Assembly (NCBI GenBank): GCA_045539625.1
Contig: JAZQFS010000016.1
Span: 2,971-66,970, forward strand
Length of the DNA: 64,000 nucleotides
Direction of reading: 5' to 3'
Source: Eubacteriales bacterium
GTDB lineage: Bacteria; Bacillota; Clostridia; Oscillospirales; CAG-382
Both the position numbers and the translations under genes were made by a program. Below the pieces are notes generated by a model. It searched no databases, was not told the DNA's origin, and saw only the letters and a list, made by a program, of their open reading frames with translations. Shown piece after piece: positions 40,009-59,855 of the stretch; position 1 is the stretch's first letter; every line of letters starts with the position of its first letter.

Positions 40009-41610
40009 CTAAAAGCAATGAGCCCGACTGCTCCAGATTATGGCAGTCGGGCGGTGCTGTATTCGGGCACAAAAACAGGGTTTAAATCCGAGATTAGGTC
40101 TCGGATTTGCCGCGGCACTTTGCCGCTGGTGGCTCAACATACCGGGCAGTCGAACACCCTGCTGTAATCCGGCGTCAATCTCCATAAGTGTAATTGTTCG
40201 GTTATCACCTGAATAGTTAAATGTTAATACGACCTTATCGTCATACACAAACACAGAATTTATGAAGGTCCTTATCAATCGTTTTTGACATTCTAAATCA
40301 GTGTAATCCATATTGGCAAACTGATGCAGGAAATAAATTATATGCTCTTTTGTAAGCCCTAAGTTTTCCTTTAATTTTGCCGATGCAAGTGCCGCCTTGA
40401 TCTCATTCTTTTGTTCATCAAGCTCGTCCATTCTCTGCTTTGTGGCATCGTTGAAAATGCCTTGCTCTATAGCTCTAACCAAATTGGAAATGGCTTTTTC
40501 TACTTCAGCCAAGCTCTTTTGCAGAGAATCTGTATATGAGGTGTCGGTATTCTGTGCTATGTAATACTGATATGTATTTTCTGCTATAAACTCTAATAGT
40601 TCTTCGTCCTGGACAAGTTTAATCACATATTCAAGCACAAGATTCTCTATCCATATCTGCCGAACCGGCTTTTTGTTACACAGTTTCTTACGTTGATTGT
40701 GACAGTAATAATAGTGATGGCGGTTTCCAGTTCTGCTTGTTCCGCACACCCCTACCATCATAGCACCGCATTTGCCGCAGAAAAGTTTTTCGGTTAGCAG
40801 ATATTCGACTTTAGAGTTCTTATGTGCCGCCGCTTTCTGATTGTATTTCAGCATTTCCTGAACCTTGTAAAAGGTTTCTTTATCTACAATGGGAGGAATG
40901 GCATTTTCCAAACGAACTTCATCTTTGTAAGTATATATGCCGATATATTTCTCGTTCTTCAATATTGTCCGCAGACTATTGTGCGTAAAAGGCTTTCCTT
41001 TTAATGTTCTGCAGCCTTGTTCGTTTAGCTTCTGCACAATTTCAGATATGGTTTTGCCTTTCGCATAAAGGTCAAAAACAAGTTTGACAGTTGGTGCGTT
41101 ATCGGGATCTATAATGAATTTCTTATCAGGACCGGTAAGATACCCTAAAGGTCTGTTGCCACCCGTGCTTTGTGCCTTTGCTGCACTTGCTCTTTGACCT
41201 CTCTTGATGTTTTGCGATAACTGCTCGGAGTAATAAGCCGCCATTCCTTCAATAACAGATTCAAGGATAATACCTTCGGGTGTATCGGGTATCATCTCGG
41301 CAACATAATAGATTTTAATGCCGTTTTTCTTGAGGTGATATTTGTTAAGTGCAATCTCTTCCTTGTTTCGCCCAATACGGTCTGTTTTCCAAACTATAAG
41401 TGCATCAAATTTATGCTTTGCCGCATCTGAAAGCATCAACTGAAACTGTTCTCGGTTATCGTTTCGCCCTGTCTGTGCCCTGTCAGCATACACGTGTATA
41501 ATTGTAAGTCCGTGTTCTGCCGCAAAGCGTTCAGCTTCGGCAACCTGACCTTCTATTGATTGCTCACCTTGTCTATGGCTCGAAAAACGGGCATAAACAA
41601 CAGCGTTCAT
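40009..41610 (-). CDS. large serine recombinase (integrase)
   Basis: N-terminal resolvase catalytic domain (AVVYARFSSHRQGEQSIEGQ, LIVWKTDRIGRN), recombinase domain, Zn-ribbon (CGKCGAMM...HHYYYC) and coiled-coil. The last ~42 codons run into the attL/terminator repeat. Confidence 0.88.
   Translation of the reverse strand: MNAVVYARFSSHRQGEQSIEGQVAEAERFAAEHGLTIIHVYADRAQTGRNDNREQFQLMLSDAAKHKFDALIVWKTDRIGRNKEEIALNKYHLKKNGIKIYYVAEMIPDTPEGIILESVIEGMAAYYSEQLSQNIKRGQRASAAKAQSTGGNRPLGYLTGPDKKFIIDPDNAPTVKLVFDLYAKGKTISEIVQKLNEQGCRTLKGKPFTHNSLRTILKNEKYIGIYTYKDEVRLENAIPPIVDKETFYKVQEMLKYNQKAAAHKNSKVEYLLTEKLFCGKCGAMMVGVCGTSRTGNRHHYYYCHNQRKKLCNKKPVRQIWIENLVLEYVIKLVQDEELLEFIAENTYQYYIAQNTDTSYTDSLQKSLAEVEKAISNLVRAIEQGIFNDATKQRMDELDEQKNEIKAALASAKLKENLGLTKEHIIYFLHQFANMDYTDLECQKRLIRTFINSVFVYDDKVVLTFNYSGDNRTITLMEIDAGLQQGVRLPGMLSHQRQSAAANPRPNLGFKPCFCARIQHRPTAIIWSSRAHCF
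40084..40132. repeat. attL of the serine-recombinase element (copy of the ssrA terminator plus CCACCA, junction J2)
   Basis: 49-bp copy of 36616-36664. Identity to the ssrA end stops after TGGTGG, and the element sequence (CTCAACATACC...) begins at 40133. Confidence 0.65.
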
Positions 41611-44564: not shown

Positions 44565-45188
44565 TTACTCCTTGAATCTGTCTTTGCTATTACTATCACA
44601 TGTCTTTTTCAACACAGCCACCAAAACCTTATGATCATACACTGACTGTATTGAAGCTGACAATAATTCTTCTTTATCAACATTGCCCCAATTTACATCA
44701 TACCCCATTCGTTTTGCCATAAGACGAATAAATTCACGAATGGGACGTCCGTTACCTTCTCTGAATGGATGAATTATGTTGAGTTCCGCCATAACATATG
44801 CAAGATTATCAAAAACCTTTTCTTCATTTGATTCTCTTAACATATTCTTTTCTTTTATCTTTGCAAACACTTTATCAAGCTCTCTGTCAATCAAGTTCGG
44901 AGGATAGAACATTGTATCAGCTTTACTGATTTGTTCTCGTCTGAGTTTTCCCGCAAACGAGTAAATATCTTCAAATATAAACTTGTGTATATTCATAAGA
45001 TGGGCTTTTGTAAAATTACCCTTGATGGGATTTTTCAAAAGCTCCATTTGTTTAATTAAGGTTATTTCTTCCTCAGCCGTTTTTAAAATACTGTTATCTG
45101 TTATGTTCAGCTTGTTTTTCAACACATTGCTGTTTGGATAACAATAAATAGATTGTGTAGTGGTATATACTTCGTATTTTGAAAACAT
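44565..45188 (-). CDS. Fic-domain protein (class I FicT/VbhT-like toxin)
   Basis: Canonical Fic motif HPFREGNGRPIREF. 207 aa. Located 2 nt downstream of the VbhA-like gene. Confidence 0.85.
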   Translation of the reverse strand: MFSKYEVYTTTQSIYCYPNSNVLKNKLNITDNSILKTAEEEITLIKQMELLKNPIKGNFTKAHLMNIHKFIFEDIYSFAGKLRREQISKADTMFYPPNLIDRELDKVFAKIKEKNMLRESNEEKVFDNLAYVMAELNIIHPFREGNGRPIREFIRLMAKRMGYDVNWGNVDKEELLSASIQSVYDHKVLVAVLKKTCDSNSKDRFKE

Positions 45189-45190
45189 AA

Positions 45191-45562
45191 TTATACCCTC
45201 TGCATATATTTTCGTTTAAGCTCTTCAATCATTTGGGTATAGCTAATTTTACCGCTGTCAATTCTTTTCAGGTTTTCTATCCCGCTTTTACTTACTTTCA
45301 TACCTTCTACCGCAAAAGTACCTTTAAGGTTTTTCAAATTACTTTCAAAATTGTTGGATTCCATAACAGTTTTATTTCTCCAATCTGTATATTTACCGGA
45401 CTTGATTCTGGCATCAGCAGGCTTTTGTGCATTTTTAGGCAAAAGCCATGCACCGGCAATTTTTGTTGCACCTTCAATTCTGCCTTCGTTGCATAATACG
45501 GTAATTCTTCTGATAGAAATACCCCACATCAAGCTTGCTTCTTTTATTGTTAGTATATCCAC
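45191..45562 (-). CDS. HTH (MerR/excisionase-type) fused to a VbhA-like Fic antitoxin domain
   Basis: HTH LTIKEASLMWGISIRRITVLCNEGRIEGA. C-terminal inhibitory motif TFAVEG, matching (S/T)xxxE(G/N). The GTG start at 45562 is preceded by AAAGAGGTG. The longer ORF-track start would include the promoter. Confidence 0.7.
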   Translation of the reverse strand: MDILTIKEASLMWGISIRRITVLCNEGRIEGATKIAGAWLLPKNAQKPADARIKSGKYTDWRNKTVMESNNFESNLKNLKGTFAVEGMKVSKSGIENLKRIDSGKISYTQMIEELKRKYMQRV

Positions 45563-45584
45563 AATGGCACCTCTTTTTGCTAAT

Positions 45585-45613
45585 ATTATATACCACATTT
45601 GGAACAATGTCAA
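45585..45613 (-). promoter_or_regulatory. consensus promoter of the VbhA-Fic-(STAND) operon
   Basis: Minus strand: TTGACA, 17-nt spacer, TATAAT. Confidence 0.65.
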
Positions 45614-45655
45614 TGTTTATAATTTTCCAAAGTGTAAAAATTAGTGCAAGTTACA

Positions 45656-46279
45656 TTATTCCTTAACTGTATCTAAATTCAGTGCAAGTCTTGCAGTATT
45701 TCTGTCTTTAAGACTTGCCTTATCATATGCTCTTGCAACCTCATACGCATTTGCAGAAAGCTCACTTGGCATATATGCTTTGCCGCCTGCCCACACTTCG
45801 AGCGGTACATTCAGCGTTTCTGATAACTGCATTGCAATAGGAAGAGGTGCGTCCTTCATCCTTCGGGTTATAATAGAACGTACTTGTCTGTCGGTAAGCC
45901 CGGTAACTCTTACAATATCGGAAATATATAACCCCATTTTCATTGTTACCTCAATGAAAATCTTGTAAAAAGGAAGACCTTCAAGCTCGTTGCATAACTC
46001 TTCGTACACTGCTTCCGATTCGGTATCACCCAAAAGGTAATCAACTGAAACCTTTAATTTTTCGGCATACTTGCTTACCTGTTCAATTTTGGGTGAACGC
46101 TGTCCAAGCTCGTAACGGCTGAGTATCTGTTTTGAAGTACCAAGCATTTTAGCAAATTCATCTTGCGAGAGCCCTTTTTCTTTACGAAGTTCTCGTAGTC
46201 TTTCTCCAAACGAAGTAAAATGCAAATCCACATCGGGCAGGCTGTCTATAACAGCCTGTTCTTTTTTGCTGTCATTCAT
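45656..46279 (-). CDS. XRE-family HTH regulator (repressor-like) with a C-terminal domain
   Basis: FGERLRELRKEKGLSQDEFAKMLGTSKQILSRYELGQRSP. The ATG at 46279 is preceded by AAAGGAG. Confidence 0.8.
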   Translation of the reverse strand: MNDSKKEQAVIDSLPDVDLHFTSFGERLRELRKEKGLSQDEFAKMLGTSKQILSRYELGQRSPKIEQVSKYAEKLKVSVDYLLGDTESEAVYEELCNELEGLPFYKIFIEVTMKMGLYISDIVRVTGLTDRQVRSIITRRMKDAPLPIAMQLSETLNVPLEVWAGGKAYMPSELSANAYEVARAYDKASLKDRNTARLALNLDTVKE

Positions 46280-46389
46280 ATCACTCAAACTCCTTTGTTT
46301 GTAATTCTGCACATATCTACATACATATTATAACTCATTAAATCCACATTGTCAATATCTTTTGTAAAATTATATGAATTTGTCGACAA

Positions 46390-46864: not shown

Positions 46865-46989
46865 TTAGGTAGTTTTCATTCTTGTATAGGAGGTGGTTGT
46901 CTTCCGTGGAAGCAAACAGAAATAATTGTCAGGTGATATGAAGGTATTGGAGCTTTTCGTATCACCTGACTTTTTATATGGAGGTATTT

Positions 46990-48063
46990 ATGAAATTACA
47001 CAACAACCAGTTATATCTTATACGCCACCTTATTCGTTTTAATTATCTTGATTATGAAAGCTGTCTTGATGTGCTCGACAGAGAAAACACAGGGGACAAA
47101 ATTAAAATGTCCTATGCATTCAGGCCACTTACAAAGAATAAGTACATATCTAAAAATAAAGACGGTATAGTAACAGTACTGAAAAAAGGAAAAGCTTTAT
47201 TTCCAAATACAAAACCGTTGATTTCTTCGGGTGGTGAAAAAGAGCGTGTTATTCAGGTGTCAAAAACGGCGGCACTTTTGGAGAAAAATGGATGTGTCAT
47301 AACGGATAGAGTACCTGACAGTCAAAAGCCACATTTCATTCCCTCTGCATGTTGGCGTAATATTGCTCACGGAATACTTTCAACAACCCGTTTTGTTGGT
47401 ATGCTTTTGGCATACGGTAAAAAGTACGCGGTTTACGACATAGGAGACGGCAGTGTTGAATGGCAGGTTCGTGCGGAAAGTTCTCTTTTCTATACAAGAT
47501 ACGGCTCTTACGAAACAAAGGCAAACGGAATGATTCTTATTTGTGATGACGATAAGAAAGATGCCATTGCAACAAACATTATCCGCCAGACTATGTGGCA
47601 CAGAAAAAGTCTTATGAGTGAAAATTATACCGAGCGTGAAAGACCTGTCCGCTTTTCAAGGTCACCGATAAAGCTCAGAACACAGTATGAGCGTGTTTAT
47701 CTTACAACAACGAAAACACTTAGAAAATCGTTGTTTCGGATATATAACGAGGATAATACCATAAGGAAATGTCTCAAGAACGGAACTCTAACATACGATC
47801 CCAAGATAGGAGATTTTGAAATATGGCCCGAAAGGTTTTATATAAATCCCGCATTTGACCTCTTGAAGCTTGTGTACTTCTTCTCTGCCGTCAAGCTTGA
47901 TATTTACGATGAAAATGAAACCGGATGTAAATCGGGTATCACATATTCTATAGCGATGCACAAAGAGGACAAGCCGATACTTGATATGTACGAAGATGTA
48001 AAAAACTCAAGGAGGATAAAAGTATATGAAATTAGATCTGATGAAAACTCTCAAAAGAATTGA
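46990..48063 (+). CDS. hypothetical protein with an N-terminal winged-helix-like region (possible replication/relaxation function)
   Basis: RBS GGAGG before the ATG at 46990. No confident family match by eye. Confidence 0.5.
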   Translation: MKLHNNQLYLIRHLIRFNYLDYESCLDVLDRENTGDKIKMSYAFRPLTKNKYISKNKDGIVTVLKKGKALFPNTKPLISSGGEKERVIQVSKTAALLEKNGCVITDRVPDSQKPHFIPSACWRNIAHGILSTTRFVGMLLAYGKKYAVYDIGDGSVEWQVRAESSLFYTRYGSYETKANGMILICDDDKKDAIATNIIRQTMWHRKSLMSENYTERERPVRFSRSPIKLRTQYERVYLTTTKTLRKSLFRIYNEDNTIRKCLKNGTLTYDPKIGDFEIWPERFYINPAFDLLKLVYFFSAVKLDIYDENETGCKSGITYSIAMHKEDKPILDMYEDVKNSRRIKVYEIRSDENSQKN

Positions 48064-48628
48064 AAAGAATATTAACTTCAAAGGCAAGACAGATGTTGAA
48101 AAATTGAAAGTTGCATATGAAGACACCCTGCGTTTGCGAAGTCAGCTGATTGCTATTATACATGATAAAGAACAATTCATCCATATTCCGTGTCATATAT
48201 TTAACCCTGTTTTTTTCACTTGTGAGCGGACAGAAAAGAAGAAGTCAGTCACCCTTACAATAAATGAACCGCTACCGTCAACAAAGGAATTGACAGAAGC
48301 GGTAGAAGAACACTGGATAAAAATGATTCACGATGAGCTTGTCAGAGAAGGTAAAACGGGAATTCCTGTATTTGACAAAGCATTCGTAATGATTGAAATA
48401 ACCACACCGAGAGGCACCCATAATTGTAAAGTGTGGGACACTTCAAACAGAAGTATAAATGTTATTATCAATAACATAAAAGGGATTCTTTTTATGGACG
48501 ACAATTTCGAGCATATGGCATTCGCGGTGACTGCAGACTGGGGCGAAGAAGCCAAAACAGTAATAAAAATCATAGATTTTGACGAGCAATTCAAAGCAAA
48601 TCTTGACAACTTACTGGCAACTCCATGA
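48026..48628 (+). CDS. hypothetical protein
   Basis: RBS AAGGAGGA lies 9 nt upstream. It overlaps the upstream gene by 38 nt. Confidence 0.5.
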   Translation: MKLDLMKTLKRIEKNINFKGKTDVEKLKVAYEDTLRLRSQLIAIIHDKEQFIHIPCHIFNPVFFTCERTEKKKSVTLTINEPLPSTKELTEAVEEHWIKMIHDELVREGKTGIPVFDKAFVMIEITTPRGTHNCKVWDTSNRSINVIINNIKGILFMDDNFEHMAFAVTADWGEEAKTVIKIIDFDEQFKANLDNLLATP

Positions 48629-48812
48629 CGGTTTCAAAAATGCCATAGAGAAAAAACGATTGGCACTAAAAAACATTTCGCAAAATGCCGTGTAAAACAT
48701 CTATTGGCATCGATTTGTGCATCCAAAGCAAAATAAAAACTACCCAATTTCAGAGGGGTTATGTGAGGGGGATTTCGCGTAAGCGCAATTCCCGAACAGA
48801 ACAGGCAGAGAT

Positions 48813-48861
48813 AAGCCCAAACCGAGTGCGCGTTTTACGCAAATCTCGTTTGGGCTTTTTG
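48813..48861 (+). terminator. intrinsic terminator
   Basis: AAGCCCAAAC...GTTTGGGCTT followed by TTT. Confidence 0.65.
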
Positions 48862-48981
48862 CAGGAATAAAACTAATTTAATGTAAATCATTGACGACTC
48901 ACAGACACAAAGAAGAATGAGATTTTTGTGATATGGTAAAATATATATACGAAAAATCAATGAAAAGGAGTTGTCAAAATA

Positions 48982-49821
48982 ATGAAAAAAATTACTCAAA
49001 TACTAATTGAAGAATTTAAGATATTTCTTGTCAGCGAAGAGAAAAGTGATGCTACAGTAGACAAGTACATTCGTGATATCTGCGCTTTTTCAATGTGGTT
49101 AAATGGAAAGGAAGTTGACAAGCCCGCAGTCCTTGAATACAAATCGTATCTTGTTGACAATTACAAGCCTGCAAGTGTTAACTCAGTTTTATCTTCCCTA
49201 AACAGCTTTTTCACTTACAACGAGTGGTATGACTGTAAGGTAAAGTCCTTAAAGATTCAAAAACAGATATTTGCCTCAAAGGAAAAAGAGCTTACAAAAG
49301 CAGAATATGAGAGACTTCTTGAGGCGGCAAAGTCGAAGAAGAATGAAAGACTCTACTTGTTGATGCAGACCATATGCTCAACGGGAATTCGTGTGTCAGA
49401 ACTAAGATTTATAACTGTTGCTGCTGTTAATACAGGAGTTGCTAACATCAATTGCAAAGGTAAGCTGCGTCAAGTATTTCTTCCCAAAACACTTTGTAAG
49501 GTTCTCACAAGATATATCCGAGAGCAAAAAATAACAAGCGGCTTCGTGTTCGTATCACGAACAGGTAAACCGCTTGACAGAAGCAATATTTGGTCAGATA
49601 TGAAAAAGCTCTGCGAATCCGCAGGAGTATCAAAGGATAAAGTCTTTCCGCACAATCTTCGCCATCTTTTTGCACGCACTTACTATTCGCTTCAAAAAGA
49701 TATTGTGCGCCTTGCCGACATTCTCGGTCATTCAAGTGTGAATACGACGAGAATTTATACGATGGAAACGGGTGAGGTGCATAAGAGGCACATTGAAAAA
49801 CTAGGGTTACTACGATGCTAA
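48982..49821 (+). CDS. tyrosine recombinase (short Xer/invertase-like)
   Basis: Catalytic signature GIRVSELR (Arg), HNLRHLFA (His-x-x-Arg), LGHSSVNTTRIYT (His, Tyr). 279 aa. Confidence 0.88.
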   Translation: MKKITQILIEEFKIFLVSEEKSDATVDKYIRDICAFSMWLNGKEVDKPAVLEYKSYLVDNYKPASVNSVLSSLNSFFTYNEWYDCKVKSLKIQKQIFASKEKELTKAEYERLLEAAKSKKNERLYLLMQTICSTGIRVSELRFITVAAVNTGVANINCKGKLRQVFLPKTLCKVLTRYIREQKITSGFVFVSRTGKPLDRSNIWSDMKKLCESAGVSKDKVFPHNLRHLFARTYYSLQKDIVRLADILGHSSVNTTRIYTMETGEVHKRHIEKLGLLRC

Positions 49822-49825
49822 AATG

Positions 49826-50094
49826 ACATAATTCCAATTATGTGGTATTAAAAATAGCAAAAATCAACTTAACTCTACACAAAAGCATTAGAATTATAAA
49901 ATTACAGCACGAAAAGACCAATGAAAGAAATTAAAGTTACATTGGTCTGCTTTGTTATGCCTTAATTTGTAAAAATATTATGTAGTTTTACGTAAATCAT
50001 TGACTTAAAACACATTTTGTGATATGATGAATGGGTAAAATTGTGTTGGTATCGTCTGCAATCAAATGACAGTACCACATAATTGGAATTTTGT
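49826..50094. promoter_or_regulatory. invertible DNA element (inverton): 22-bp IRs flanking a 225-bp promoter-bearing segment
   Basis: IRL ACATAATTCCAATTATGTGGTA at 49826-49847. IRR TACCACATAATTGGAATTTTGT at 50073-50094 (18 bp perfect, 21/22 overall). It lies directly after the tyrosine recombinase stop. Confidence 0.7.
50000..50028 (+). promoter_or_regulatory. extended -10 promoter inside the inverton, currently facing the surface-protein operon
   Basis: TTGACT, 17-nt spacer containing TG at -15/-14, TATGAT. Confidence 0.6.
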
Positions 50095-50121
50095 AGTAAG
50101 CATTGGAAAGGAGGAAACATA

Positions 50122-50256
50122 ATGAAAAAAAAGCAATATGAAAAACCGGAACTTGAAGTAACAGTATTTGTATCAGAAGATATACTTACAACATCTTCAA
50201 ATATTGATAACAATCAAGGCGAGTGGGATCCGCTTTCGCCCTGGGGAAATTTTTAG
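50122..50256 (+). CDS. 44-aa peptide MKKKQYEKPELEVTVFVSEDILTTSSNIDNNQGEWDPLSPWGNF
   Basis: Strong RBS GGAAAGGAGG 7 nt upstream. First ORF after the invertible promoter. Missing from the ORF track, presumably because of a length cutoff. Confidence 0.5.
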   Translation: MKKKQYEKPELEVTVFVSEDILTTSSNIDNNQGEWDPLSPWGNF

Positions 50257-50277
50257 TAAGTACAAAGGAGAATTGAT

Positions 50278-51840
50278 ATGAAAAACACATTAAAATTAAT
50301 CGCATTAACGTTGGTTGTATCTATGCTTTTAATCGGAGTGGCAGTACCTGCTTCGGCAAATGGTGAAGCACCCGAATTGAGCATAGACTACTGCAACCTT
50401 TCCTTCCGTGACAGCGTGTGCATTAAATATGCTGTTGCATCAACAAGCACAGAAGAAACCACGGTTCTTCTGTGGGATGAACCTTCCGATGAATACTTGT
50501 ATGGCACACATATTGCCGAACTTTCAACCGTTGGCAATCAGACAATAAGTGGCGAAACATATAAGGTATTTGACTATACCGAACTTGCAGCAAAGCAGAT
50601 GACAGATGTTATATATGCTCGTGCCTATACCGTTGTTGACGGTGAAGCGTATTACAGCGATGTTGTAAAATACAGCATTCTTCAATATGCGTATAGCAAA
50701 CTCGGCAAGACAGGTACAGCATCTGATGATGAAAATCTCAAGGCTATGCTTTCTTCAATGCTCGAATATGGTGCAAACGCACAGAAGTATTTTGAGTATG
50801 ATGTAGACAGACTTGCGACAGATGACTTTTATAAGGTTAAAATTATAGGTGGTCTTATTGACGACCAGTGTAATCACGGTCTTTATCTTGAAGGCGACAA
50901 GGTTAATGTTATAGCACCTGAAACTAATAGCGATGGCGTTGAATTTGCAGGGTGGATAAATGAAAACGGTGATGTTGTTGCAGAAACAGCAGAAGCCACA
51001 ATAACAGTCGGAACTTCAAATGATGTTTATACAGCAGTTTATGGAGAAATTCCTGCTGACCCCAATAAGCCTGAAGCATCCGAAGGTCTTGAATATGAAT
51101 CCAACGGAGACGCCACTTGCTATCTTGTTGGCATGGGCGAATGCCAAGATGCGGACATTGTAATTCCCGAAACATCACCCGACGGTGATACAGTATTTGC
51201 CATCGACCGTAACGCATTTGCCAGTGAAGCAATAACATCTATTACTATTCCTACAACAATAGAAGAAATCGGTAGAAATGCATTTAACGGTTGTGATTCT
51301 TTGACAGATGTGTATTACCTTGGTACAGAGAAAGAGTGGGAAGCTCTTTGCGAAAATATTGCTACAGGTAATACCGCTCTTTTGAATGCGAATGTTCATT
51401 TCGCAAAGGAATCGATAACTTATGATGAACCTACAATCGTTGTTGAAAGTGTAACTGCAAGTGCAGGAGATACTGTGGAAGTACTTGTAGATCTTTACAG
51501 TAATCCCGGAATACTTGGAATGACATTGAAACTTGGATTTAATGACGAAGCAATGACACTTGCTAAAGTGGAGAAAGGAACAGCTCTAAGTGAAATGACC
51601 TTTACATCTCCCAAAGGAGAAGCTCTCAAAAACGGATGCGAACTTCCTTGGGATGCGGAGGAAGTATTGCCTGAAGATGTAACAAACGGCAACATCTTAA
51701 AATTAACTTTTGAGATTGCAGATAACGCAGAAACTGGAGATTACAATGTGACCTTAACCTACAATAACGGAGCCGTTATTGACAATGATATGCTTCCCGT
51801 GAATCTTGCAATTATTAACGGTAAAGTATCTATAGCATAA
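50278..51840 (+). CDS. secreted protein: unknown N-domain, BspA-type LRR, C-terminal cohesin-like module
   Basis: Signal peptide ...VAVPASANG. LRR ITSITIPTTIEEIGRNAFNGCDSLTDVYYLGTEKEWE. C-terminal module NPGILGMTLKLGFNDEAM...GDYNVTLTYNNGAVIDNDMLPVNLAIINGKVSI. Confidence 0.7.
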   Translation: MKNTLKLIALTLVVSMLLIGVAVPASANGEAPELSIDYCNLSFRDSVCIKYAVASTSTEETTVLLWDEPSDEYLYGTHIAELSTVGNQTISGETYKVFDYTELAAKQMTDVIYARAYTVVDGEAYYSDVVKYSILQYAYSKLGKTGTASDDENLKAMLSSMLEYGANAQKYFEYDVDRLATDDFYKVKIIGGLIDDQCNHGLYLEGDKVNVIAPETNSDGVEFAGWINENGDVVAETAEATITVGTSNDVYTAVYGEIPADPNKPEASEGLEYESNGDATCYLVGMGECQDADIVIPETSPDGDTVFAIDRNAFASEAITSITIPTTIEEIGRNAFNGCDSLTDVYYLGTEKEWEALCENIATGNTALLNANVHFAKESITYDEPTIVVESVTASAGDTVEVLVDLYSNPGILGMTLKLGFNDEAMTLAKVEKGTALSEMTFTSPKGEALKNGCELPWDAEEVLPEDVTNGNILKLTFEIADNAETGDYNVTLTYNNGAVIDNDMLPVNLAIINGKVSIA

Positions 51841-51853
51841 AGAGGCGATAATA

Positions 51854-53227
51854 ATGAACAAAAGAATTATTACAGTCTTCTTAACATTAATTCTAATTTG
51901 CTCGTTAACAGTTATGTCAAAGGTCAGTTTAGCTTCTTTTACCGACGTTCCTGACCATGAGTGGTTTGCAGAAAGCGTAGAATATGTAAAAGATAAAGGT
52001 TTGATGAATGGTATAACTGTTACCACCTTTGAACCGCAGACCTCTATAACTCGTGGAATGATTGTTACAATCATTTATAGATTAGAAGGGTCACCGGAGG
52101 TTAAGAGTGAGCTTCAGTTTTCAGATGTAAACCCGACATATTATTACTGCACTCCAATTATTTGGGCATCTGAAAATGGTATCGTTAACGGTTATAGCAA
52201 AGATACTTTCGCACCCGACGATGAAATCACAAGAGAACAGTTTGCAACAATTCTCTATCGGTATGCTGAGAAGAAGGGCCTTGATGTTTCGCTCGGTTCG
52301 GATAGTGTTGATTTGTCAAGCTTCGAAGACGAAAGTAAAATCAGCGAATATGCAGTAAAAGCTTTGTCTTGGGCGAATGAAGCGGGACTGATTAAAGGTG
52401 TTACAGTAACAACCCTTGAACCTCAGGGAAAAGCTACTAGAGCACAGGCTGCAACCATTTTTATGAGATTTGATAAACTTATAGAACAGTCTGAACAATC
52501 AAATTCTTCAATCGAATCTAAGGATGATGAAACAGACAATGATGAAACCGCGCCCGGCAAGAATGGTGATTCATCTTCAAGCAATGACAGTGGTTCCCCA
52601 AAAGACCCTGTTAAAAATGACGATAAAGATGATGGCAACAACGACAAAGATAATAATAACGACGATGATAATGCCGGAGAGTGGGATGATGTGAAAGATG
52701 AAAACTCCAAAAATGAAAACACTGGCAATGACTCTTCAAAAGACGAACCCTCGAATGATGACCCTATCGAGGAAGATGACAATGAAGATGAAGCCTATGA
52801 AAATCCAACGATAGTTGTTGACAATGCTTCTGTAAGAGCAGGAGAAGAAGTTTCGATAAGTGTTGAACTTCACAATAACCCGGGAATACTTGGAATGACA
52901 TTAAAACTGAAATTTGATGAAGAAGTGATGACGCTAACCGAAGTCAAAAAAGGAACGGCTCTTAGTGAAACTACATTTACGGCTCCTAAAGGCGAAGCAC
53001 TCAAAAATGGTTGTCGATTCCTTTGGGATGCAGAATATGTGTCAATCGAAGATGTAACAAACGGCAACATCTTAAAATTAACGTTTGAGATTGTAGATGA
53101 CGCAGAAACTGGAGATTACAACGTGACCTTAAGTTACAATAACGGAGCCGTTATTGACAATGATATGCTTCCAGTTAATCTTGAGATTATTAATGGTAAA
53201 ATTTCTATAAAACAAGGAGGATATTGA
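51854..53227 (+). CDS. cell-wall anchor: three SLH repeats, acidic low-complexity linker, C-terminal cohesin-like module
   Basis: FTDVPDHEWFAESVEYVKDKGLMNG, FSDVNPTYYYCTPIIWASENGIVNG, SEYAVKALSWANEAGLIKG. D/N/E/S-rich linker. Module NPGILGMTLKLKFDEEVM...INGKISI. Confidence 0.75.
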   Translation: MNKRIITVFLTLILICSLTVMSKVSLASFTDVPDHEWFAESVEYVKDKGLMNGITVTTFEPQTSITRGMIVTIIYRLEGSPEVKSELQFSDVNPTYYYCTPIIWASENGIVNGYSKDTFAPDDEITREQFATILYRYAEKKGLDVSLGSDSVDLSSFEDESKISEYAVKALSWANEAGLIKGVTVTTLEPQGKATRAQAATIFMRFDKLIEQSEQSNSSIESKDDETDNDETAPGKNGDSSSSNDSGSPKDPVKNDDKDDGNNDKDNNNDDDNAGEWDDVKDENSKNENTGNDSSKDEPSNDDPIEEDDNEDEAYENPTIVVDNASVRAGEEVSISVELHNNPGILGMTLKLKFDEEVMTLTEVKKGTALSETTFTAPKGEALKNGCRFLWDAEYVSIEDVTNGNILKLTFEIVDDAETGDYNVTLSYNNGAVIDNDMLPVNLEIINGKISIKQGGY

Positions 53228-53229
53228 TA

Positions 53230-56200
53230 ATGAAAAATAGATTCATATCAGCTTTTTTGGCATTTGTTATGATTTTTACAATCATTCCATTCAATGCTTT
53301 TGCTGCAGATGTTCAAGAGACAACTGCAGTTGTAAGTGTTAAAAATACAACCGCTGAGCCAGGCAACACTGTTACAGTTAATGTTGTGATTGAAAACAAT
53401 CCTGGAATACTCGGTATGACATTGAAATTGAATTTTGATGACAGCATAGCAACGCTAAAGTCCGTAAAAAACGGTGATGCATTAAGTGCTATGTCATTTA
53501 CCCCACCTACGGGTGATGCTCTGGTAAGTGGCTGTAATTTGGTTTGGGATGCGGAAGAAGTTAAGGCGGAAGATATAAAAGACGGTGTAATGGCAATGCT
53601 TACTTTTGAAATTGCGGAAGATGCAATTCCCGGTGCTTTTGTCGACATCGATTTTTCTTACAATAAAGGAGCTATTCGTGATTCCGATTTTTCAGCTATA
53701 GATGTATCAATTGTAAGCGGACGTATTAGTATATTAGATTATACCCCCGGCGATCTCAATGAAAGTGGCTATATAGATTCAACTGATGTTGTATTCTTGA
53801 GAAGATATATCGCGGGCGGTTATACTACTCCCGAGGGAAATCCGATAACTATTAATGAATTTGCAGCTGATGTTGATGATAATGATTATTTAGATTCTAC
53901 AGACATAGTTTCGATTCGTAGAAATATTGCTGGCGGTTACGGTGTTGAATTGCTTCCTCATACAGAAAAATGTAAGCACATTTCTTTGACTGCAATTCCT
54001 GCAAAAGAAGCAACGTGTACAGATGACGGTAATGTTGCATACTGGGCTTGTGACGATTGTTCTAAAGTGTTTAGCGATGCAGCGGCAACAACTGAAATCA
54101 CAATTGAAGACACCATACTCACTGTTGAACACCAAACAACATATACTCCTGAAAAAGAAGCAACTACCTATGCAGATGGTAATATAGAGTATTGGACTTG
54201 CTCTACATGCGGTAAGTTGTTTAGCGACAGCACATGCGAGAACGAAATTGAACTTAAAGACACAATAATTCAAAAGCTTACTGGTAATACATATACTGTA
54301 TATTTCAAGGATGCTCAAACAGGAAAAGCTACATTTGTAAGCCTTGATAATCAGGAAACATCGGTTTCTTCAATTACAAAAGACAAAAGCGAAAGATATG
54401 ATTTCCCTCAGTTTAAAAAATATGGGTTCTTCGCTTTGTGTCTTACTGACAGTAACGGCAACATAATTACTGGAATAGATGCCGGCACTACTGGTGATGT
54501 TGATGTTTATGTTCATTGGATGAGTAACAGAAACCAAACACGTCCCGTAAAAGAACTTGGAAAACCACAGATTATTGAGGATAAAGAAAACGGACAGATA
54601 TACTTCGTATACGAAATCGGTGAGATTGACAATGTGCCTATTGAAGTTTTGTTTAATGCCGGTGAAATAGACGAAGAAATGGTTCATGAAAAAACAAGCG
54701 TAAAGGTAAAAAACACTGCCACAGAAAATGTTACGGCAATAGCAGAAACAGTAGCGATGGCTACTACAAAATCCGCTTCGATGACATTGTCAGAAGATTG
54801 GATAAATAAGTATTCCCTTGACGAAGAGTGGGCAGCAACTCAAGATTCAGAAAAGGTTGCTAATCTCAAAAAATATATTGAAGATGGCGGTCAAATAAAT
54901 ATCAGTTCGCAATATGGCGGAGAAGATACACACACCGACACCTCTGGTTCAAGTACTACAGACACACACAAAGATACAACAGGAAAGGTAAATACCGAAA
55001 GTAGCGAAGACGGCGGCAATGAAGAAAGTCAACTTGCCGGAAAATTTGGGGCCTCATATTCTGTAGACGCATTAGGTGTTAAAGCGGGAATGGATTTTGA
55101 GATATCCGCATATCAGAAAGAGGGGTCTAATTGGAAGGAAGCTGAAAGCGAACAGAATTCTTCAGGAACAGAAGATTCCCATGAAACTACCAGGTATAAC
55201 GATATTTCAGATTCGTATTCTAACCATTGGAATACTGAAGAGGGTTATACTATGTCCAACAAAATCGGAACCGAAACCGATATTTCAACAGCGTTAAGAA
55301 CGGCTATTACGGAAAACTCCAAAAAGAGTTACAGCGACGAATACCAAAGAGGTTCCTTAACCACTGAATCACAGAATATTTCCCACAACGAGGGTCGCGA
55401 ATACTCTGCTGCAATTACTTTTAGTGAAGAAGAAGAGATTACCGACTCTACTACTGTTACATTAACTTTTAAAACTAAAGGTCATTACAGATTTATTAGA
55501 GCAGGAAAACTTGATGTTTACGCTGTTGTAGGTTATGACATTAAGAATAATACATATTCTGTATCTACGTTTAGTATGTTTGAAAAAGGAACAAAAGAAA
55601 TATGGGACTTTTCAGAAACGGGAACTTTTAAAGATGGAGAAATAGGCGTTTTACCGTTTGAGGTGCCTTATGAGGTAGAAGAATACATTCTTGGAGAAAC
55701 AGCGTATACCAACGGCCTTTATTTCAATATTGCAGAGGGTGCAGTAACAAGATATGATGGTACTGCCAAAAATGTATTGATACCTAATTATTATTCCAAA
55801 AACGGCAATATGACTTATGTAAGAACATTAGGCAATGATCCTCAAACCCTTAAGCCGCTGTTCGCAGGAAACGAAAACATAGAGGTTGTACGTCTCAGCA
55901 AATATATTACTTCTATTCCTGATGGTGCTTTTGAAGGATGTACAAATCTTAAAACAGTTATTGCTCCCGGTGTGACTTCGATAGGTGCTAATGCATTCAA
56001 GGGCTGTGAAAATCTCAACAAATTTATCGTTTCAACAAAAGTTACAACTCTCGGCGATAATGCTTTTGTTGATTGCCCTGAAGTAATAGTTAATGCAAGC
56101 AACTCGTCAGTCGCAAGAGCTGCAACTACTGCTGGGGCAAATAAGATAACCATAAATGTTGAAGATATGAGCGGCAAATTTACAGAAAAGGTGCTTGATG

Positions 56201-57828
56201 ACGACGAGAATGTTATCGCAGATTACACAAACGGCTATACAATCAACATTGGTGATATCGAATACTTTGCTTTCTACGGCGGAGGCAAAACATTTAACAA
56301 TGTTAAACTTGTGTCCAGTGCTGAAACGACATATATCGAAAAAGCAACATTCACAAGTGATAGTGGTATTTCATTGAATATTAATTCTGAAAACATTACT
56401 TTCAAAGGCGTTAATGTAAAAAATGACAATGTTGCAATGCTATCTCAGTTTGACGGAGCAAAGATATTAATTGCTGAAAATTCAACATTTGATACACTAA
56501 CAGATGATAAGTCAACAAAAGTAATTGTAAATAACATTGAACTTTCAAACAATGCTGGCGAAACAGCACAGTGGATAATTGACGGTACATTATATGTTTA
56601 CGGAAATACCGAATTTGCAGGCAAATATATAGCGGTTGCCAAAGCTATAACTACATTGTCTAAAACTGAGTTTGAAAACTATGTAACGGGTGTTTTCACC
56701 ATTACTTTCAACCCGGTCGGCGGATCTGTTTCCACAACCTCAAAATCCGTAACATATGGCAGTCCATATGGTACGCTTCCCGTACCTACAAGAACGGGAT
56801 ACACATTCACAAGATGGACGTTGTCTGATGATGATGCCACAATAAATGAAAGTAGTATTGTTTCTACACCGGCGGATCATACATTGATTGCACGGTGGAA
56901 GGCAAACGAATATACGGTAAAATTTAATACAAATGGTGGCGTTTGTTCTACACCCTCAAAAACAGTAACATATGGTTCGACTTATGGAGATTTGCCCACA
57001 CCGACAAGAGATTATTACGAGTTTCTTGGTTGGTATACGGCAAAGACCGGAGGTACAAAAATTACATCATCTACAAAGGTATCTATAACCGCAGAACAGA
57101 CACTCTATGCACAGTGGAAGCAAAAAGATGTTTCAACAAATTGGGTGCTCAAGTCGGAAATGCCGACTGGTGCTCAAGTGGTAAACACAAAGTACACCTA
57201 TGCCAAGACACATTATACCACTTCAAGCTCTTCCACAATGAGTGGTTGGACAAAGTATGATACCACATGGGCTTGGAGCAATTATGGCTCTTGGAGTGCT
57301 TGGCAGTATGGAGCTGTAACTGAAACAGACAGCAGAGATGTTGAAACACAGCAGGTTGTAGATGTTCCTGCACATACTGAATATAGATATGGGGCATATG
57401 TTGGCGATAACAACCGAGGGAACAGACCTTGTAGTTATTGTGCAACAGGTTACACTAATAGGACGCCTAATGAAGTCTGGACAGAATGGTCTGATTCAAA
57501 AATACCTACGCCAAGCGGATGGAATTATAAATGTTACCGTGCTTGCACGCATAAGGGCGGTCAGTATTTTTCCGAACCAGATTCTCCTGGTGGTCGTGGT
57601 CAAGGATACTATTGGCATGACTATGTAGTTGAGGGTTATAGCGATGTCTTCTTCTGGGAAGAAACTCGCCAAGTTGCAGCCACATATAAAACTCAGTACA
57701 GATACAGAGATAGAAGTAAGATATACACATATCACTTCTATAAAGTAGAAGACCTTGAATCAACTTCTTATCCAACAGGTGATAATATTTCTACTATCAA
57801 TGAATGGGTACAGTACCGAGAAAAATAA
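53230..57828 (+). CDS. 1533-aa secreted protein: N-terminal cohesin-like module, dockerin, CxxC pairs, large unknown central region, BspA-type LRR, Listeria-Bacteroides-type repeats, Trp/Tyr/Cys-rich C-terminus
   Basis: Signal peptide MKNRFISAFLAFVMIFTIIPFNAFA. NPGILGMTLKLNFDD. Dockerin segments DLNESGYIDSTDVVFLRRYIAGGY and DVDDNDYLDSTDIVSIRRNIAGGY. TGYTFTRWT and YEFLGWY repeats. RBS AAGGAGG. The ATG at 53230 overlaps the upstream stop. Confidence 0.75.
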   Translation: MKNRFISAFLAFVMIFTIIPFNAFAADVQETTAVVSVKNTTAEPGNTVTVNVVIENNPGILGMTLKLNFDDSIATLKSVKNGDALSAMSFTPPTGDALVSGCNLVWDAEEVKAEDIKDGVMAMLTFEIAEDAIPGAFVDIDFSYNKGAIRDSDFSAIDVSIVSGRISILDYTPGDLNESGYIDSTDVVFLRRYIAGGYTTPEGNPITINEFAADVDDNDYLDSTDIVSIRRNIAGGYGVELLPHTEKCKHISLTAIPAKEATCTDDGNVAYWACDDCSKVFSDAAATTEITIEDTILTVEHQTTYTPEKEATTYADGNIEYWTCSTCGKLFSDSTCENEIELKDTIIQKLTGNTYTVYFKDAQTGKATFVSLDNQETSVSSITKDKSERYDFPQFKKYGFFALCLTDSNGNIITGIDAGTTGDVDVYVHWMSNRNQTRPVKELGKPQIIEDKENGQIYFVYEIGEIDNVPIEVLFNAGEIDEEMVHEKTSVKVKNTATENVTAIAETVAMATTKSASMTLSEDWINKYSLDEEWAATQDSEKVANLKKYIEDGGQINISSQYGGEDTHTDTSGSSTTDTHKDTTGKVNTESSEDGGNEESQLAGKFGASYSVDALGVKAGMDFEISAYQKEGSNWKEAESEQNSSGTEDSHETTRYNDISDSYSNHWNTEEGYTMSNKIGTETDISTALRTAITENSKKSYSDEYQRGSLTTESQNISHNEGREYSAAITFSEEEEITDSTTVTLTFKTKGHYRFIRAGKLDVYAVVGYDIKNNTYSVSTFSMFEKGTKEIWDFSETGTFKDGEIGVLPFEVPYEVEEYILGETAYTNGLYFNIAEGAVTRYDGTAKNVLIPNYYSKNGNMTYVRTLGNDPQTLKPLFAGNENIEVVRLSKYITSIPDGAFEGCTNLKTVIAPGVTSIGANAFKGCENLNKFIVSTKVTTLGDNAFVDCPEVIVNASNSSVARAATTAGANKITINVEDMSGKFTEKVLDDDENVIADYTNGYTINIGDIEYFAFYGGGKTFNNVKLVSSAETTYIEKATFTSDSGISLNINSENITFKGVNVKNDNVAMLSQFDGAKILIAENSTFDTLTDDKSTKVIVNNIELSNNAGETAQWIIDGTLYVYGNTEFAGKYIAVAKAITTLSKTEFENYVTGVFTITFNPVGGSVSTTSKSVTYGSPYGTLPVPTRTGYTFTRWTLSDDDATINESSIVSTPADHTLIARWKANEYTVKFNTNGGVCSTPSKTVTYGSTYGDLPTPTRDYYEFLGWYTAKTGGTKITSSTKVSITAEQTLYAQWKQKDVSTNWVLKSEMPTGAQVVNTKYTYAKTHYTTSSSSTMSGWTKYDTTWAWSNYGSWSAWQYGAVTETDSRDVETQQVVDVPAHTEYRYGAYVGDNNRGNRPCSYCATGYTNRTPNEVWTEWSDSKIPTPSGWNYKCYRACTHKGGQYFSEPDSPGGRGQGYYWHDYVVEGYSDVFFWEETRQVAATYKTQYRYRDRSKIYTYHFYKVEDLESTSYPTGDNISTINEWVQYREK

Positions 57829-58700: not shown

Positions 58701-59855
58701 TTAGTTTTCTCGGTTTTCCTTTTTAAATTGTTTTTGCTTTAATACTATCGCTTCTAATTCTTTTTGATGCATATCTATTTCTTTTTCGTACTCTCGTTTC
58801 TCTTTGCTTACATCAAATATGTTTATGTATGCAACAACAATGGAAAGTATGGCTGTGATGAGTGGGAATATAGTTAAAATTGTAATTTCTTCGTAAAACT
58901 TTCCTTCCACTGCTATCGCAAATGTAATAGTAAGCGCAATTACAAGGAGGAATGAGGTCATCATTAAAACGCTATTCTTGGTTTTGTTCCTTTTTTCCTT
59001 GTGTTTAATTTTAAGTTCGGAAATTTGTTTTTTTAAGGTGTTTTCTTCCTCTTTTGCGGAGTGAAATTCAAGTATTGATTTAAACTTTTTTAATTTTTCT
59101 CGAATTGATTCATCGGAAAGTATGGTATAACAAACATTAAAAACTTGTTCACCGTAATTTGCACTCGTATTTTCTAGATCAGGTATTTGAGAAATAGAAA
59201 ATGCTTTTCGTATTTTCCAATCAAACATTATTGTCTCAATGTTTGTGAAAACAGTTCCACCAGAAACTTTTGAGTAAATCTCATATTCGTCTTTGCTTGC
59301 TTTATTAAAAACTTGATACACTTTTTTTTCGTTGATAATATCTCCAATTTTCAAATATAAACTTCTCATTGCAGCGGAACTTATAGCATCTGTTTCCATA
59401 ACGGTTAGATTAACATCACATAGTGGCAAAATAAGTTTTAATATATCCGTATACCCTGCCTGACAATCAAAAAGCACAACATCATATTTTTGAAAAATAT
59501 CATTATGTATTAGTGATTTGCCGTCATCTTTATGGGTATATGTTTTTGTGATTTCTTTTGTTATTTGCGTTATAGAAGGTATAAAATCACAATTAGAATT
59601 TATATTTACAAAACTTGTTTTTTTATTGTTATTATCACAAAAAAGTAAGTCATAAAATGACAGTATATTCTTCTTTTTATGTGACAATTTGTCTTCATAG
59701 AAATATGTTGCACCATTAGTGCTTAAATCGCAATCTACTAAAAGGGTCTTTATTCCACACCTAGATAAAAGAGAAGCCATGCTTAATGCTAATGTGGTTT
59801 TTCCACTACCACCTTTTCCGCTAATAAAAGAGATTGTTTTACACATGTTTTTCAC
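58701..59855 (-). CDS. ParA/MinD-superfamily P-loop ATPase fused to a coiled coil and two C-terminal TM helices
   Basis: Deviant Walker A SGKGGSGKTT, A' LLVDCDLS, Walker B VVLFDCQAG. KE-rich coiled coils flank VLMMTSFLLVIALTITFAIAV and ILTIFPLITAILSIVVAYINIF. Confidence 0.7.
   Translation of the reverse strand: MKNMCKTISFISGKGGSGKTTLALSMASLLSRCGIKTLLVDCDLSTNGATYFYEDKLSHKKKNILSFYDLLFCDNNNKKTSFVNINSNCDFIPSITQITKEITKTYTHKDDGKSLIHNDIFQKYDVVLFDCQAGYTDILKLILPLCDVNLTVMETDAISSAAMRSLYLKIGDIINEKKVYQVFNKASKDEYEIYSKVSGGTVFTNIETIMFDWKIRKAFSISQIPDLENTSANYGEQVFNVCYTILSDESIREKLKKFKSILEFHSAKEEENTLKKQISELKIKHKEKRNKTKNSVLMMTSFLLVIALTITFAIAVEGKFYEEITILTIFPLITAILSIVVAYINIFDVSKEKREYEKEIDMHQKELEAIVLKQKQFKKENREN

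Follow-up and report, generated by a model that had tools for sequence, protein, structure and literature searches.

Does the short non-coding segment between a tyrosine recombinase gene and a set of surface-protein genes act as a promoter that can be turned around, and in which state was it assembled? An earlier note on this DNA had proposed an invertible promoter between the recombinase and a surface-protein operon, assembled in the ON orientation. We followed up the proposal in the window, by which we mean the whole stretch of 64,000 nucleotides that was analysed, and in related loci of other genomes (handles with L for loci, with P for recombinases). The proposal stands: repeats, promoter and recombinase are conserved, homologous segments are found in both orientations, and near-identical strains occur in both states. 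The locus is very probably a fimS-type invertible promoter switch, run by the adjoining recombinase and assembled ON.

Table 1 Features of the switch, its cargo and its surroundings (positions refer to the window unless a locus handle is given)
Feature	Position	Strand	Basis or remark
Large serine recombinase	40009-41610	-	start of low-GC stretch nearby
Fic	44565-45188		low-GC stretch
HTH genes	45191-46312		low-GC stretch
Xer-like tyrosine recombinase, 279 aa	48982-49821	+	PF00589 and SAM-like N-domain; presumed invertase of the adjoining switch
Left arm (IRL) ACATAATTCCAATTATGTGGTA	49826-49847	.	inverted-repeat search, family conservation
IRL outer half-site ACATAA	49826-49831
IRL spacer TTCCAA	49832-49837
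IRL inner half-site TTATGTGGTA	49838-49847
Invertible segment, 225 bp, promoter toward cargo (ON)	49848-50072	.	homologues in both orientations
Conserved hairpin, stem AGACCAATG / CATTGGTCT, 16-nt loop	49915-49948 (49915-49923 / 49940-49948)	.	fold and covariation
Sigma-70-type promoter, extended -10, TTGACT-17-TGaTATGAT	50000-50028	+	promoter scan
Right arm (IRR) TACCACATAATTGGAATTTTGT	50073-50094	.	inverted-repeat search, family conservation
IRR inner half-site TACCACATAA	50073-50082
IRR spacer TTGGAA	50083-50088
IRR outer half-site TTTTGT	50089-50094
RBS GGAAAGGAGG (50105-50114) and small ORF (44 aa, 50122-50256)	50105-50256	+	peptide conserved in L090, L234
Secreted protein, Flg_new_2, LRR_5 and C-terminal cohesin	50278-51840	+	domain search
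Cell-wall anchor, three SLH and C-terminal cohesin	51854-53227	+	SLH E=2e-34, cohesin 3e-13
1534-aa surface protein: N-terminal cohesin-like module, dockerin, LRR_5, Flg_new repeats	53224-57828	+	domain search
ParA-like ATPase	58701-59855		low-GC stretch
Loci of the clade with recombinases 52-59% identical	L268:2326-2582; L309:2321-2670; L302:2327-2602; L285:2326-2569; L306:2326-2583

A layout shared by related loci in the Clostridia

A protein-seeded scan, in which each species was represented by one genome, gave 80 loci whose recombinases have 68-93% identity to the window's; all are from Clostridia, mostly gut and rumen MAGs. Five were left out because the contig ends before the right arm. 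Among the 75 evaluable loci, 73 have the same layout of recombinase stop codon, inverted repeat, segment, inverted repeat and cargo gene, with the left site starting 0-24 nt past the stop codon and the two sites 183-322 nt apart. The earlier expectation that the repeat pair should be kept in related loci is thereby confirmed, and the pair is kept at the same position.

A reciprocal scan with the site motif alone gave at least 120 loci. The 3' end of a recombinase homologue (42-77% identity) abuts the site in 79 of the matches listed, and 56 of the 66 listed matches that have a spaced pair show such an abutting homologue; single site-motif matches in other phyla, among the matches listed, come without one. 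Members of the family occur in hundreds of species-level genomes, some of which carry several copies.

A divergent clade (52-59% identity) includes Anaerotruncus colihominis DSM 17241, Eisenbergiella tayi DSM 26961, Muricomes intestini, Oscillibacter sp. 1-3 and Pseudoflavonifractor. It has the same layout, with arms drifted to ACAACATAA or ACAACAGA...TCTGTTGT. The strict arm pattern missed most partners in this clade, and a general repeat search revealed the drifted-arm pairs. The arms thus co-vary with the recombinase clade.

Not every copy is complete. The right arm is missing in L011, L081-84 and L077, the last of which has the left site only. In L011:4844-5000 and L081:3844-4000 (also L082-L084) the left arm and the promoter half are present in the OFF orientation, the hairpin and right arm are absent, and the sequence runs directly into a dockerin ORF. 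This truncated form is identical in 21 contigs carrying recombinase P0031, and on its sequence it is apparently a locked variant. Loci that have lost the right arm indicate that copies can decay into locked states.

Two arms built as recombination sites

As the earlier note had described, the window holds 22-nt inverted repeats with one mismatch, 18 nt of them perfect, around 225 nt. No other spaced inverted repeat of at least 18 nt within 1 kb is present in the 64 kb of the window. Each arm is itself near-palindromic, reading ACATAA-TTCCAA-TTATGT on the left and ACATAA-TTGGAA-TTTTGT on the right, where the outer half-site departs from TTATGT by one mismatch. The pattern ACATAA-N6-TTATGT falls at just the two arm positions in the window, against 0.25 expected. 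In the core site of a tyrosine recombinase, a short asymmetric overlap region lies between two binding half-sites in inverted orientation, and each window arm is, judged by its build, such a site. The two spacers are reverse complements of each other, and because the two sites are inverted relative to this asymmetric spacer, recombination between them would yield inversion rather than excision.

Across the family the arm consensus is TACCACATAA-N6-TTATGTGGTA, arm length ranges from 22 to 28 nt, and conservation is generally lower in the outer half-sites. Among the loci we counted 34 spacer sequences, none of them palindromic. In 73 of 74 pairs, the window's among them, the left spacer read as its reverse complement gives precisely the right one, where shuffling gives 3.6; right-hand sites were chosen partly by spacer match, other arm-matching sites being rare at the loci. 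Tyrosine recombinases require identical (homologous) overlap regions, and covariation of the spacers is what this requirement predicts. It would be hard to explain if the repeats were a protein operator or the ends of a transposon.

At L089:816-835, a recombinase fragment 98% identical to the window's adjoins the spacer TCCATA rather than TTCCAA, with the promoter in the OFF orientation. A near-identical enzyme beside another spacer indicates that the spacer changes faster than the enzyme.

Extra copies of the site in direct repeat, 30-40 nt apart, were seen at L012:4849-4901, L226:2349-2401, L243:2326-2431 and L147:6606-6981, and also in L053, L060, L065, L069-L071 and L074. The arrangements comprise two left sites, two right sites, two of each in L147, and three left sites with a 40-nt period in Lachnospiraceae bacterium 3-2. 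These additional sites might allow alternative inversions or small deletions, or provide extra recombinase binding.

A conserved promoter and a covarying hairpin inside the segment

The extended -10 promoter that had been proposed to face the cargo is the best promoter-like site between positions 49400 and 50500 (10/12 plus TG). Each of the 74 segments carries one strong TTGACa/t-17-TGnTATAAT promoter, directed outward from an equivalent place some 45-55 nt inside one arm. TTGAC and the T/A positions of the -10 are invariant columns, and the -35 and extended -10 are the most conserved columns of the interior; beyond the sites, the hairpin and this promoter, the 74 aligned segments have little sequence in common. 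The promoter points toward the cargo in 18 loci, including the window, and toward the recombinase in 56. A scan of metagenome contigs for the conserved promoter core gave no matches. From its sequence, we infer that the promoter in the window is active.

Upstream of the promoter lies a hairpin with a fold of -14.5 to -14.8 kcal/mol (z about -3). Over the 74 loci, 91% of cells are paired and compensatory changes are seen in 7 of the 9 pairs; 0 of 500 shuffles reach the pairing score, and slid controls collapse. With its 16-nt loop and modest T-tract, the window hairpin is not a canonical intrinsic terminator, a simple terminator scan of the window did not call it as one, and an Rfam search of 49600-50400 found no family. 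The earlier note had judged its U-tract to be better in the flipped orientation. This did not hold: the two directions tie in the window, and the family favours the promoter strand, which has the better T-tract in 53 loci, against 8 for the opposite strand and 13 ties, the window among them. Placed behind the promoter and with the T-tract on that promoter's strand, the hairpin would end the recombinase transcript in the ON state, and its most likely role, judged from placement and pairing, is as a terminator or insulator of transcription entering the segment.

The hairpin also bears on a different account, in which the locus would be a switch of the cwpV type: a transcript coming from beyond the segment would meet an orientation-dependent terminator, and the promoter-like site within the segment would be incidental. 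A conserved, covarying hairpin inside the segment would suit such a switch, and there is no obvious terminator between the recombinase gene and the left arm, so that the recombinase transcript reads into the segment. However, the hairpin lies upstream of the promoter and so cannot attenuate the promoter's own transcript in ON, the cwpV promoter lies outside its switch (PMC2784873), and it is the promoter, at its fixed outward position, that is best conserved among the interior columns of the 74 loci. We consider a cwpV-type switch very unlikely, and take the internal promoter as the element that is switched.

Homologous segments are found in both orientations

The window segment aligns over its full length, at 77-84% identity, in the same orientation with L008 and L014 and in reverse with L001, L002, L003, L005 and L013, the recombinase gene being fixed throughout. 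Closer comparisons come from two groups of relatives. The recombinase P0039 is 86% identical to that of the window. Among its loci, L217-L220 and L223 are OFF, L221 and L222 are ON, and L225, which is cut inside the segment, has the OFF junction too. As assembled, L220 (OFF) differs from L221/L222 (ON) by 150 mismatches in 3840 nt; after in-silico inversion of the segment bounded by the repeats, a single mismatch in 3840 nt is left.

The second group carries P0013, 91% identical to the window recombinase (L090-L095), and matches the window in its upstream ORFs, its small peptide, its cohesin and SLH-cohesin genes and its right-arm half-site TTTTGT. Five of these contigs are OFF and L093 carries the flipped junction. 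Its last 15 nt, past the left arm, match perfectly the reverse-complemented bases ahead of the right arm in L090, from which L093 differs at 7 positions over the upstream 3866 nt. Close relatives thus show both orientations in L220 versus L221/L222 and in L093 versus L090. In the window, the corresponding flipped left junction would be the left arm running into CTGTCATTTGATTGCAG. The loci of P0003 (93% identity, four contigs and L002) are all OFF, and those of P0027 and of P0048 show a single state each.

Contig ends cluster at the switch: of the 24 that lie within 4 kb 3' of the recombinase, 10 are in the first 450 nt (p=1.4e-4). Breaks at this place would result from mixed orientations in a sample when assembler k-mers are longer than the arms. 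Many metagenome contigs, short ones from the site-motif scan among them, begin or stop at a site or just past it, such as L007, L010, L017, L025, L033, L035, L041, L064, L075, L080, L093, L096 and L224, as well as L106, L113, L135 and L163.

Could the two orientations in public contigs be assembly artefacts, and the repeat a static operator or palindrome? All the comparative data come from metagenome assemblies, whose contigs often end at the repeat. Yet assembler k-mers exceed the arms (22-28 nt) in length, k141 standing in the contig names, and a wrong orientation would therefore not be expected unless reads supported it. The ON form of P0039 is identical from two samples and two assembly pipelines (L221, L222), orientation varies among dozens of species while the flanks stay fixed, and breaks at the arms are themselves expected from mixed orientations in a sample. 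The chance that the orientations are artefacts seems to us close to negligible.

A family that flips may still contain copies that do not, and the window copy could be a locked relic, fixed ON by the mismatch in its right outer half-site or by an inactive recombinase. The right arm does read TTTTGT for TTATGT, decayed copies without a right arm exist elsewhere (L011, L081-84, L077), and the comparison covers relatives of the window's own strain. Against this, the orthologous L090-L095 locus, with the same TTTTGT half-site, occurs in both states, and outer half-sites are the less conserved ones family-wide. Both window spacers are intact and complementary, and the recombinase ORF is full length with its catalytic residues. 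We give the relic a small chance. Since no database record was found for the exact sequence of the window recombinase, it is from orthologues that we infer that the window copy still flips.

The adjoining recombinase

The recombinase matches PF00589 (Phage_integrase) at E=5e-31, with 108 bits against a cut-off of 27, and its ORF stops 4 nt ahead of the left arm. Its best NCBIfam matches are XerA and XerD, and its scores stay below the Xer equivalog cut-offs throughout (XerA 147 bits against 220, XerD 130 against 330, XerC 114 against 335). The FimB and FimE models (NCBIfam PRK09870/09871) score 36.7 bits against 221 and 25 against 222. Aligned with the XerC-like 4a8e and XerA 5hxy, the protein has the catalytic R, HxxR, H and Y intact, the stretches GIRVSEL, HNLRH and GHSSVNTTRIY matching the catalytic motifs of these two structures.

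The adjoining recombinase is most likely the invertase of the switch, as its co-location with the site suggests: a family member abuts the site in 73/75 protein-seeded loci and in 56/66 site-seeded pairs among the matches listed. Several genomes have more than one family member, each beside a switch. With several members and the same arm consensus in one genome, another paralogue could act in trans.

Three ORFs (361, 200 and 61 aa) lie 5' of the recombinase at 46978-48870 and gave no Pfam or NCBIfam match. The P0013 loci have counterparts of the first two (357 and 200 aa) in unchanged order. Within the recombinase gene, we considered a minus-strand terminator-like hairpin (49611-49624) as the end of an OFF-state antisense RNA and rejected it: being present in only 5/81 loci, it is a by-product of the coding sequence.

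The cargo is a predicted cohesin-dockerin surface assembly

A strong RBS and the small ORF follow directly after the switch. The encoded 44-aa peptide is acidic, shares the pattern M.KK.YE.PE.E..V....D.LT.S...DNQGEWD with L090 and L234, has no signal peptide, and belongs to no Pfam or NCBIfam family. The small-peptide ORF always stands ahead of the cohesin gene.

All three of the larger proteins have a cohesin; the middle one has three SLH domains besides, and the largest a dockerin. The N-terminal module of the 1534-aa protein is 47% identical to the cohesin of the SLH protein, and no carbohydrate-active enzyme domain was found in the three surface proteins. From these domains, the three genes are predicted to build a cell-surface assembly made up of a cohesin anchored through SLH domains, another cohesin protein and a giant protein with cohesin, dockerin and LRR. 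Our literature search found no paper tying DNA inversion or phase variation to cohesin/dockerin genes; in the literature searched, a cohesin/dockerin/SLH cargo has not previously been associated with phase variation.

Elsewhere in the family, the first genes past the switch are very diverse and lean to the cell envelope. They encode zinc-ribbon membrane proteins, SPFH/Band_7_1, SLH, LRR_5, Flg_new, Big_2, SH3_3, M23 peptidase, dockerin, VWA/PP2C, TetR and DUF5685.

Genomic context

From about 38 to 64 kb of the window the GC content is 28-39%, against 42-48% upstream. The low GC, together with serine recombinase, Fic, HTH and ParA-like genes, makes an integrated element plausible, and 38000-64000 is probably such an element, with its right end beyond the window. 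The earlier note had placed the cargo on a mobile island. The GC drop and the serine recombinase, Fic and ParA genes make this plausible here, but it does not extend to the family, where the module and the same cargo also stand beside housekeeping genes. Related switch modules follow pheT, sodC or araA in other genomes. At L234:2342-3840 and in L235, a 41-aa peptide and a Flg_new_2/LRR_5/cohesin protein are found with the recombinase and switch beside araA and an aldolase gene. An araA-linked module with the same cargo indicates that the whole module occurs in different genomic contexts.

These surroundings also bear on whether the repeats might instead be attachment or dif-like sites, with the recombinase acting as an integrase of the island or as a resolvase rather than as an invertase. 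The enzyme is Xer-like and sits in a low-GC region with other mobile-element genes, as that account would have it. But the sites are only 225 bp apart and inverted relative to the spacer, near-identical strains show a precise inversion, the same module stands beside pheT, sodC and araA in other genomes, and the island has a large serine recombinase of its own (Table 1). We regard attachment or dif-like sites as extremely unlikely and hold to an invertible promoter.

Proposed mechanism and implications

In the mechanism that we propose, the adjoining recombinase would bind the palindromic half-sites of each arm (consensus ACCACATAA / TTATGTGGT), strand exchange would take place within the asymmetric 6-bp spacer, and the 225-bp segment would flip. 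In the ON state, transcription would run from near 50035 through the right arm to the RBS, the small ORF and the three surface-protein genes, and the hairpin would end the recombinase transcript entering the segment. In the OFF state, the promoter would read in antisense into the recombinase gene from its 3' end, and no longer into the operon. The effects of the hairpin and of OFF-state antisense transcription are presumptive; an antisense feedback from the OFF promoter would fit the 3:1 bias toward OFF.

A broader reading combines four elements. A self-contained recombinase and switch may have spread through gut Clostridia as a portable cassette, coming to stand before very different operons. 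Its copies share their arms and have each their own 6-bp spacer, an address that would keep switches of the same genome apart. OFF antisense transcription into the recombinase gene would stabilise OFF, consistent with the 56:18 distribution of orientations. The fourth element is a phase-variable cohesin-dockerin assembly. We offer the combination tentatively, as possible, and would on balance not expect all four elements to hold together. If it is true, a whole cohesin-dockerin surface assembly is phase-variable, which is unreported in the literature searched.

Much work has been done on phase-variable promoters in Bacteroides, E. coli and C. difficile, and much less in the Oscillospiraceae, Acutalibacteraceae and Lachnospiraceae, which are dominant in human and ruminant guts. 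Our analysis suggests that cohesin-dockerin/SLH assemblies in uncultured gut Clostridia are expressed heterogeneously. Such expression matters for adhesion, for colonisation of fibre and for exposure to phage and the immune system, and also for reading metatranscriptomes and understanding assembly breaks. Because the arms are fixed, the spacer variable, the promoter fixed in position and the hairpin conserved, the state of the switch can be scored from assemblies or reads. The existence of cultured carriers (Anaerotruncus colihominis DSM 17241, Eisenbergiella tayi DSM 26961, Blautia celeris NSJ-34 and Lentihominibacter faecis BX16) makes the mechanism testable. A specialist will find the mechanism unsurprising; what is of use, and open to test, is the family's clean sequence grammar and the proposed phase variation of a cohesin-dockerin assembly.

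Comparison with known systems

The earlier note had likened the layout to fimS with FimB/FimE, to the cwpV/RecV switch of C. difficile and to Bacteroides invertons. The likeness to fimS and to promoter invertons of the Bacteroides type is sound; that to cwpV/RecV is not, its promoter lying outside the segment and recV elsewhere (PMC2784873).

By sequence, the locus has what marks a fimS-type switch, namely a pair of inverted repeats around a short non-coding segment and an internal promoter reading out through one repeat. As in fimS, the promoter in a short repeat-bounded segment points in ON toward genes for a surface structure, a tyrosine recombinase gene lies immediately upstream with its transcript reading into the switch, and most snapshots are OFF. 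It differs in having one Xer-like recombinase, where E. coli has two (FimB/FimE), in arms of 22-28 bp built as half-site, 6-bp spacer and half-site, where the fimS repeats are 9 bp, and in its Gram-positive host.

A tyrosine recombinase takes part in the cwpV switch as well, where imperfect inverted repeats of ~21 bp enclose ~195 bp ahead of the gene for a cell-wall protein; there the promoter is not part of the stretch that inverts, OFF comes about through formation of a terminator, and recV is encoded elsewhere (PMC2784873). The present locus shares with it the Firmicutes host, the inverted repeats, a cell-wall protein gene and a tyrosine recombinase, but has its promoter inside the segment and its recombinase adjoining, which sets it apart from switches of the cwpV type.

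With the Bacteroides systems (Mpi, Tsr), the family has in common promoter segments flanked by inverted repeats that serve surface structures, are many per genome and are enriched in the gut. The phylum, the promoter type and the repeat motifs are different. Mpi is moreover a serine recombinase that acts globally in trans, whereas each switch here has its own adjoining tyrosine recombinase.

The nearest relatives may already have been catalogued. In the accessible part of a PhaseFinderDC survey of hCom2, inverton group 139 of the Clostridia is linked to the adjacent tyrosine recombinase invertase group 35 (PMC11892184). The same part gives repeats of up to 25 nt and interiors of 206-228 nt (Clostridium sp. 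D5, Intestinimonas butyriciproducens), a nearby tyrosine recombinase for nearly all members, and flipping at read level in culture (PMC11892184). Compared by geometry, taxon and adjacency alone, as far as that part of the survey goes, the window family is probably inverton group 139 with invertase group 35. A genome scan seeded with an Allofournierella family member gave no match in Intestinimonas or Clostridium sp. D5, and our literature search found no relevant paper in which the site motif is printed. The survey is a catalogue, and its accessible part does not describe the half-site and spacer architecture, the spacer covariation, the hairpin or a cohesin/dockerin cargo (PMC11892184). The locus is an addition to a known kind of switch, in a Clostridia family that is large and only lightly described.
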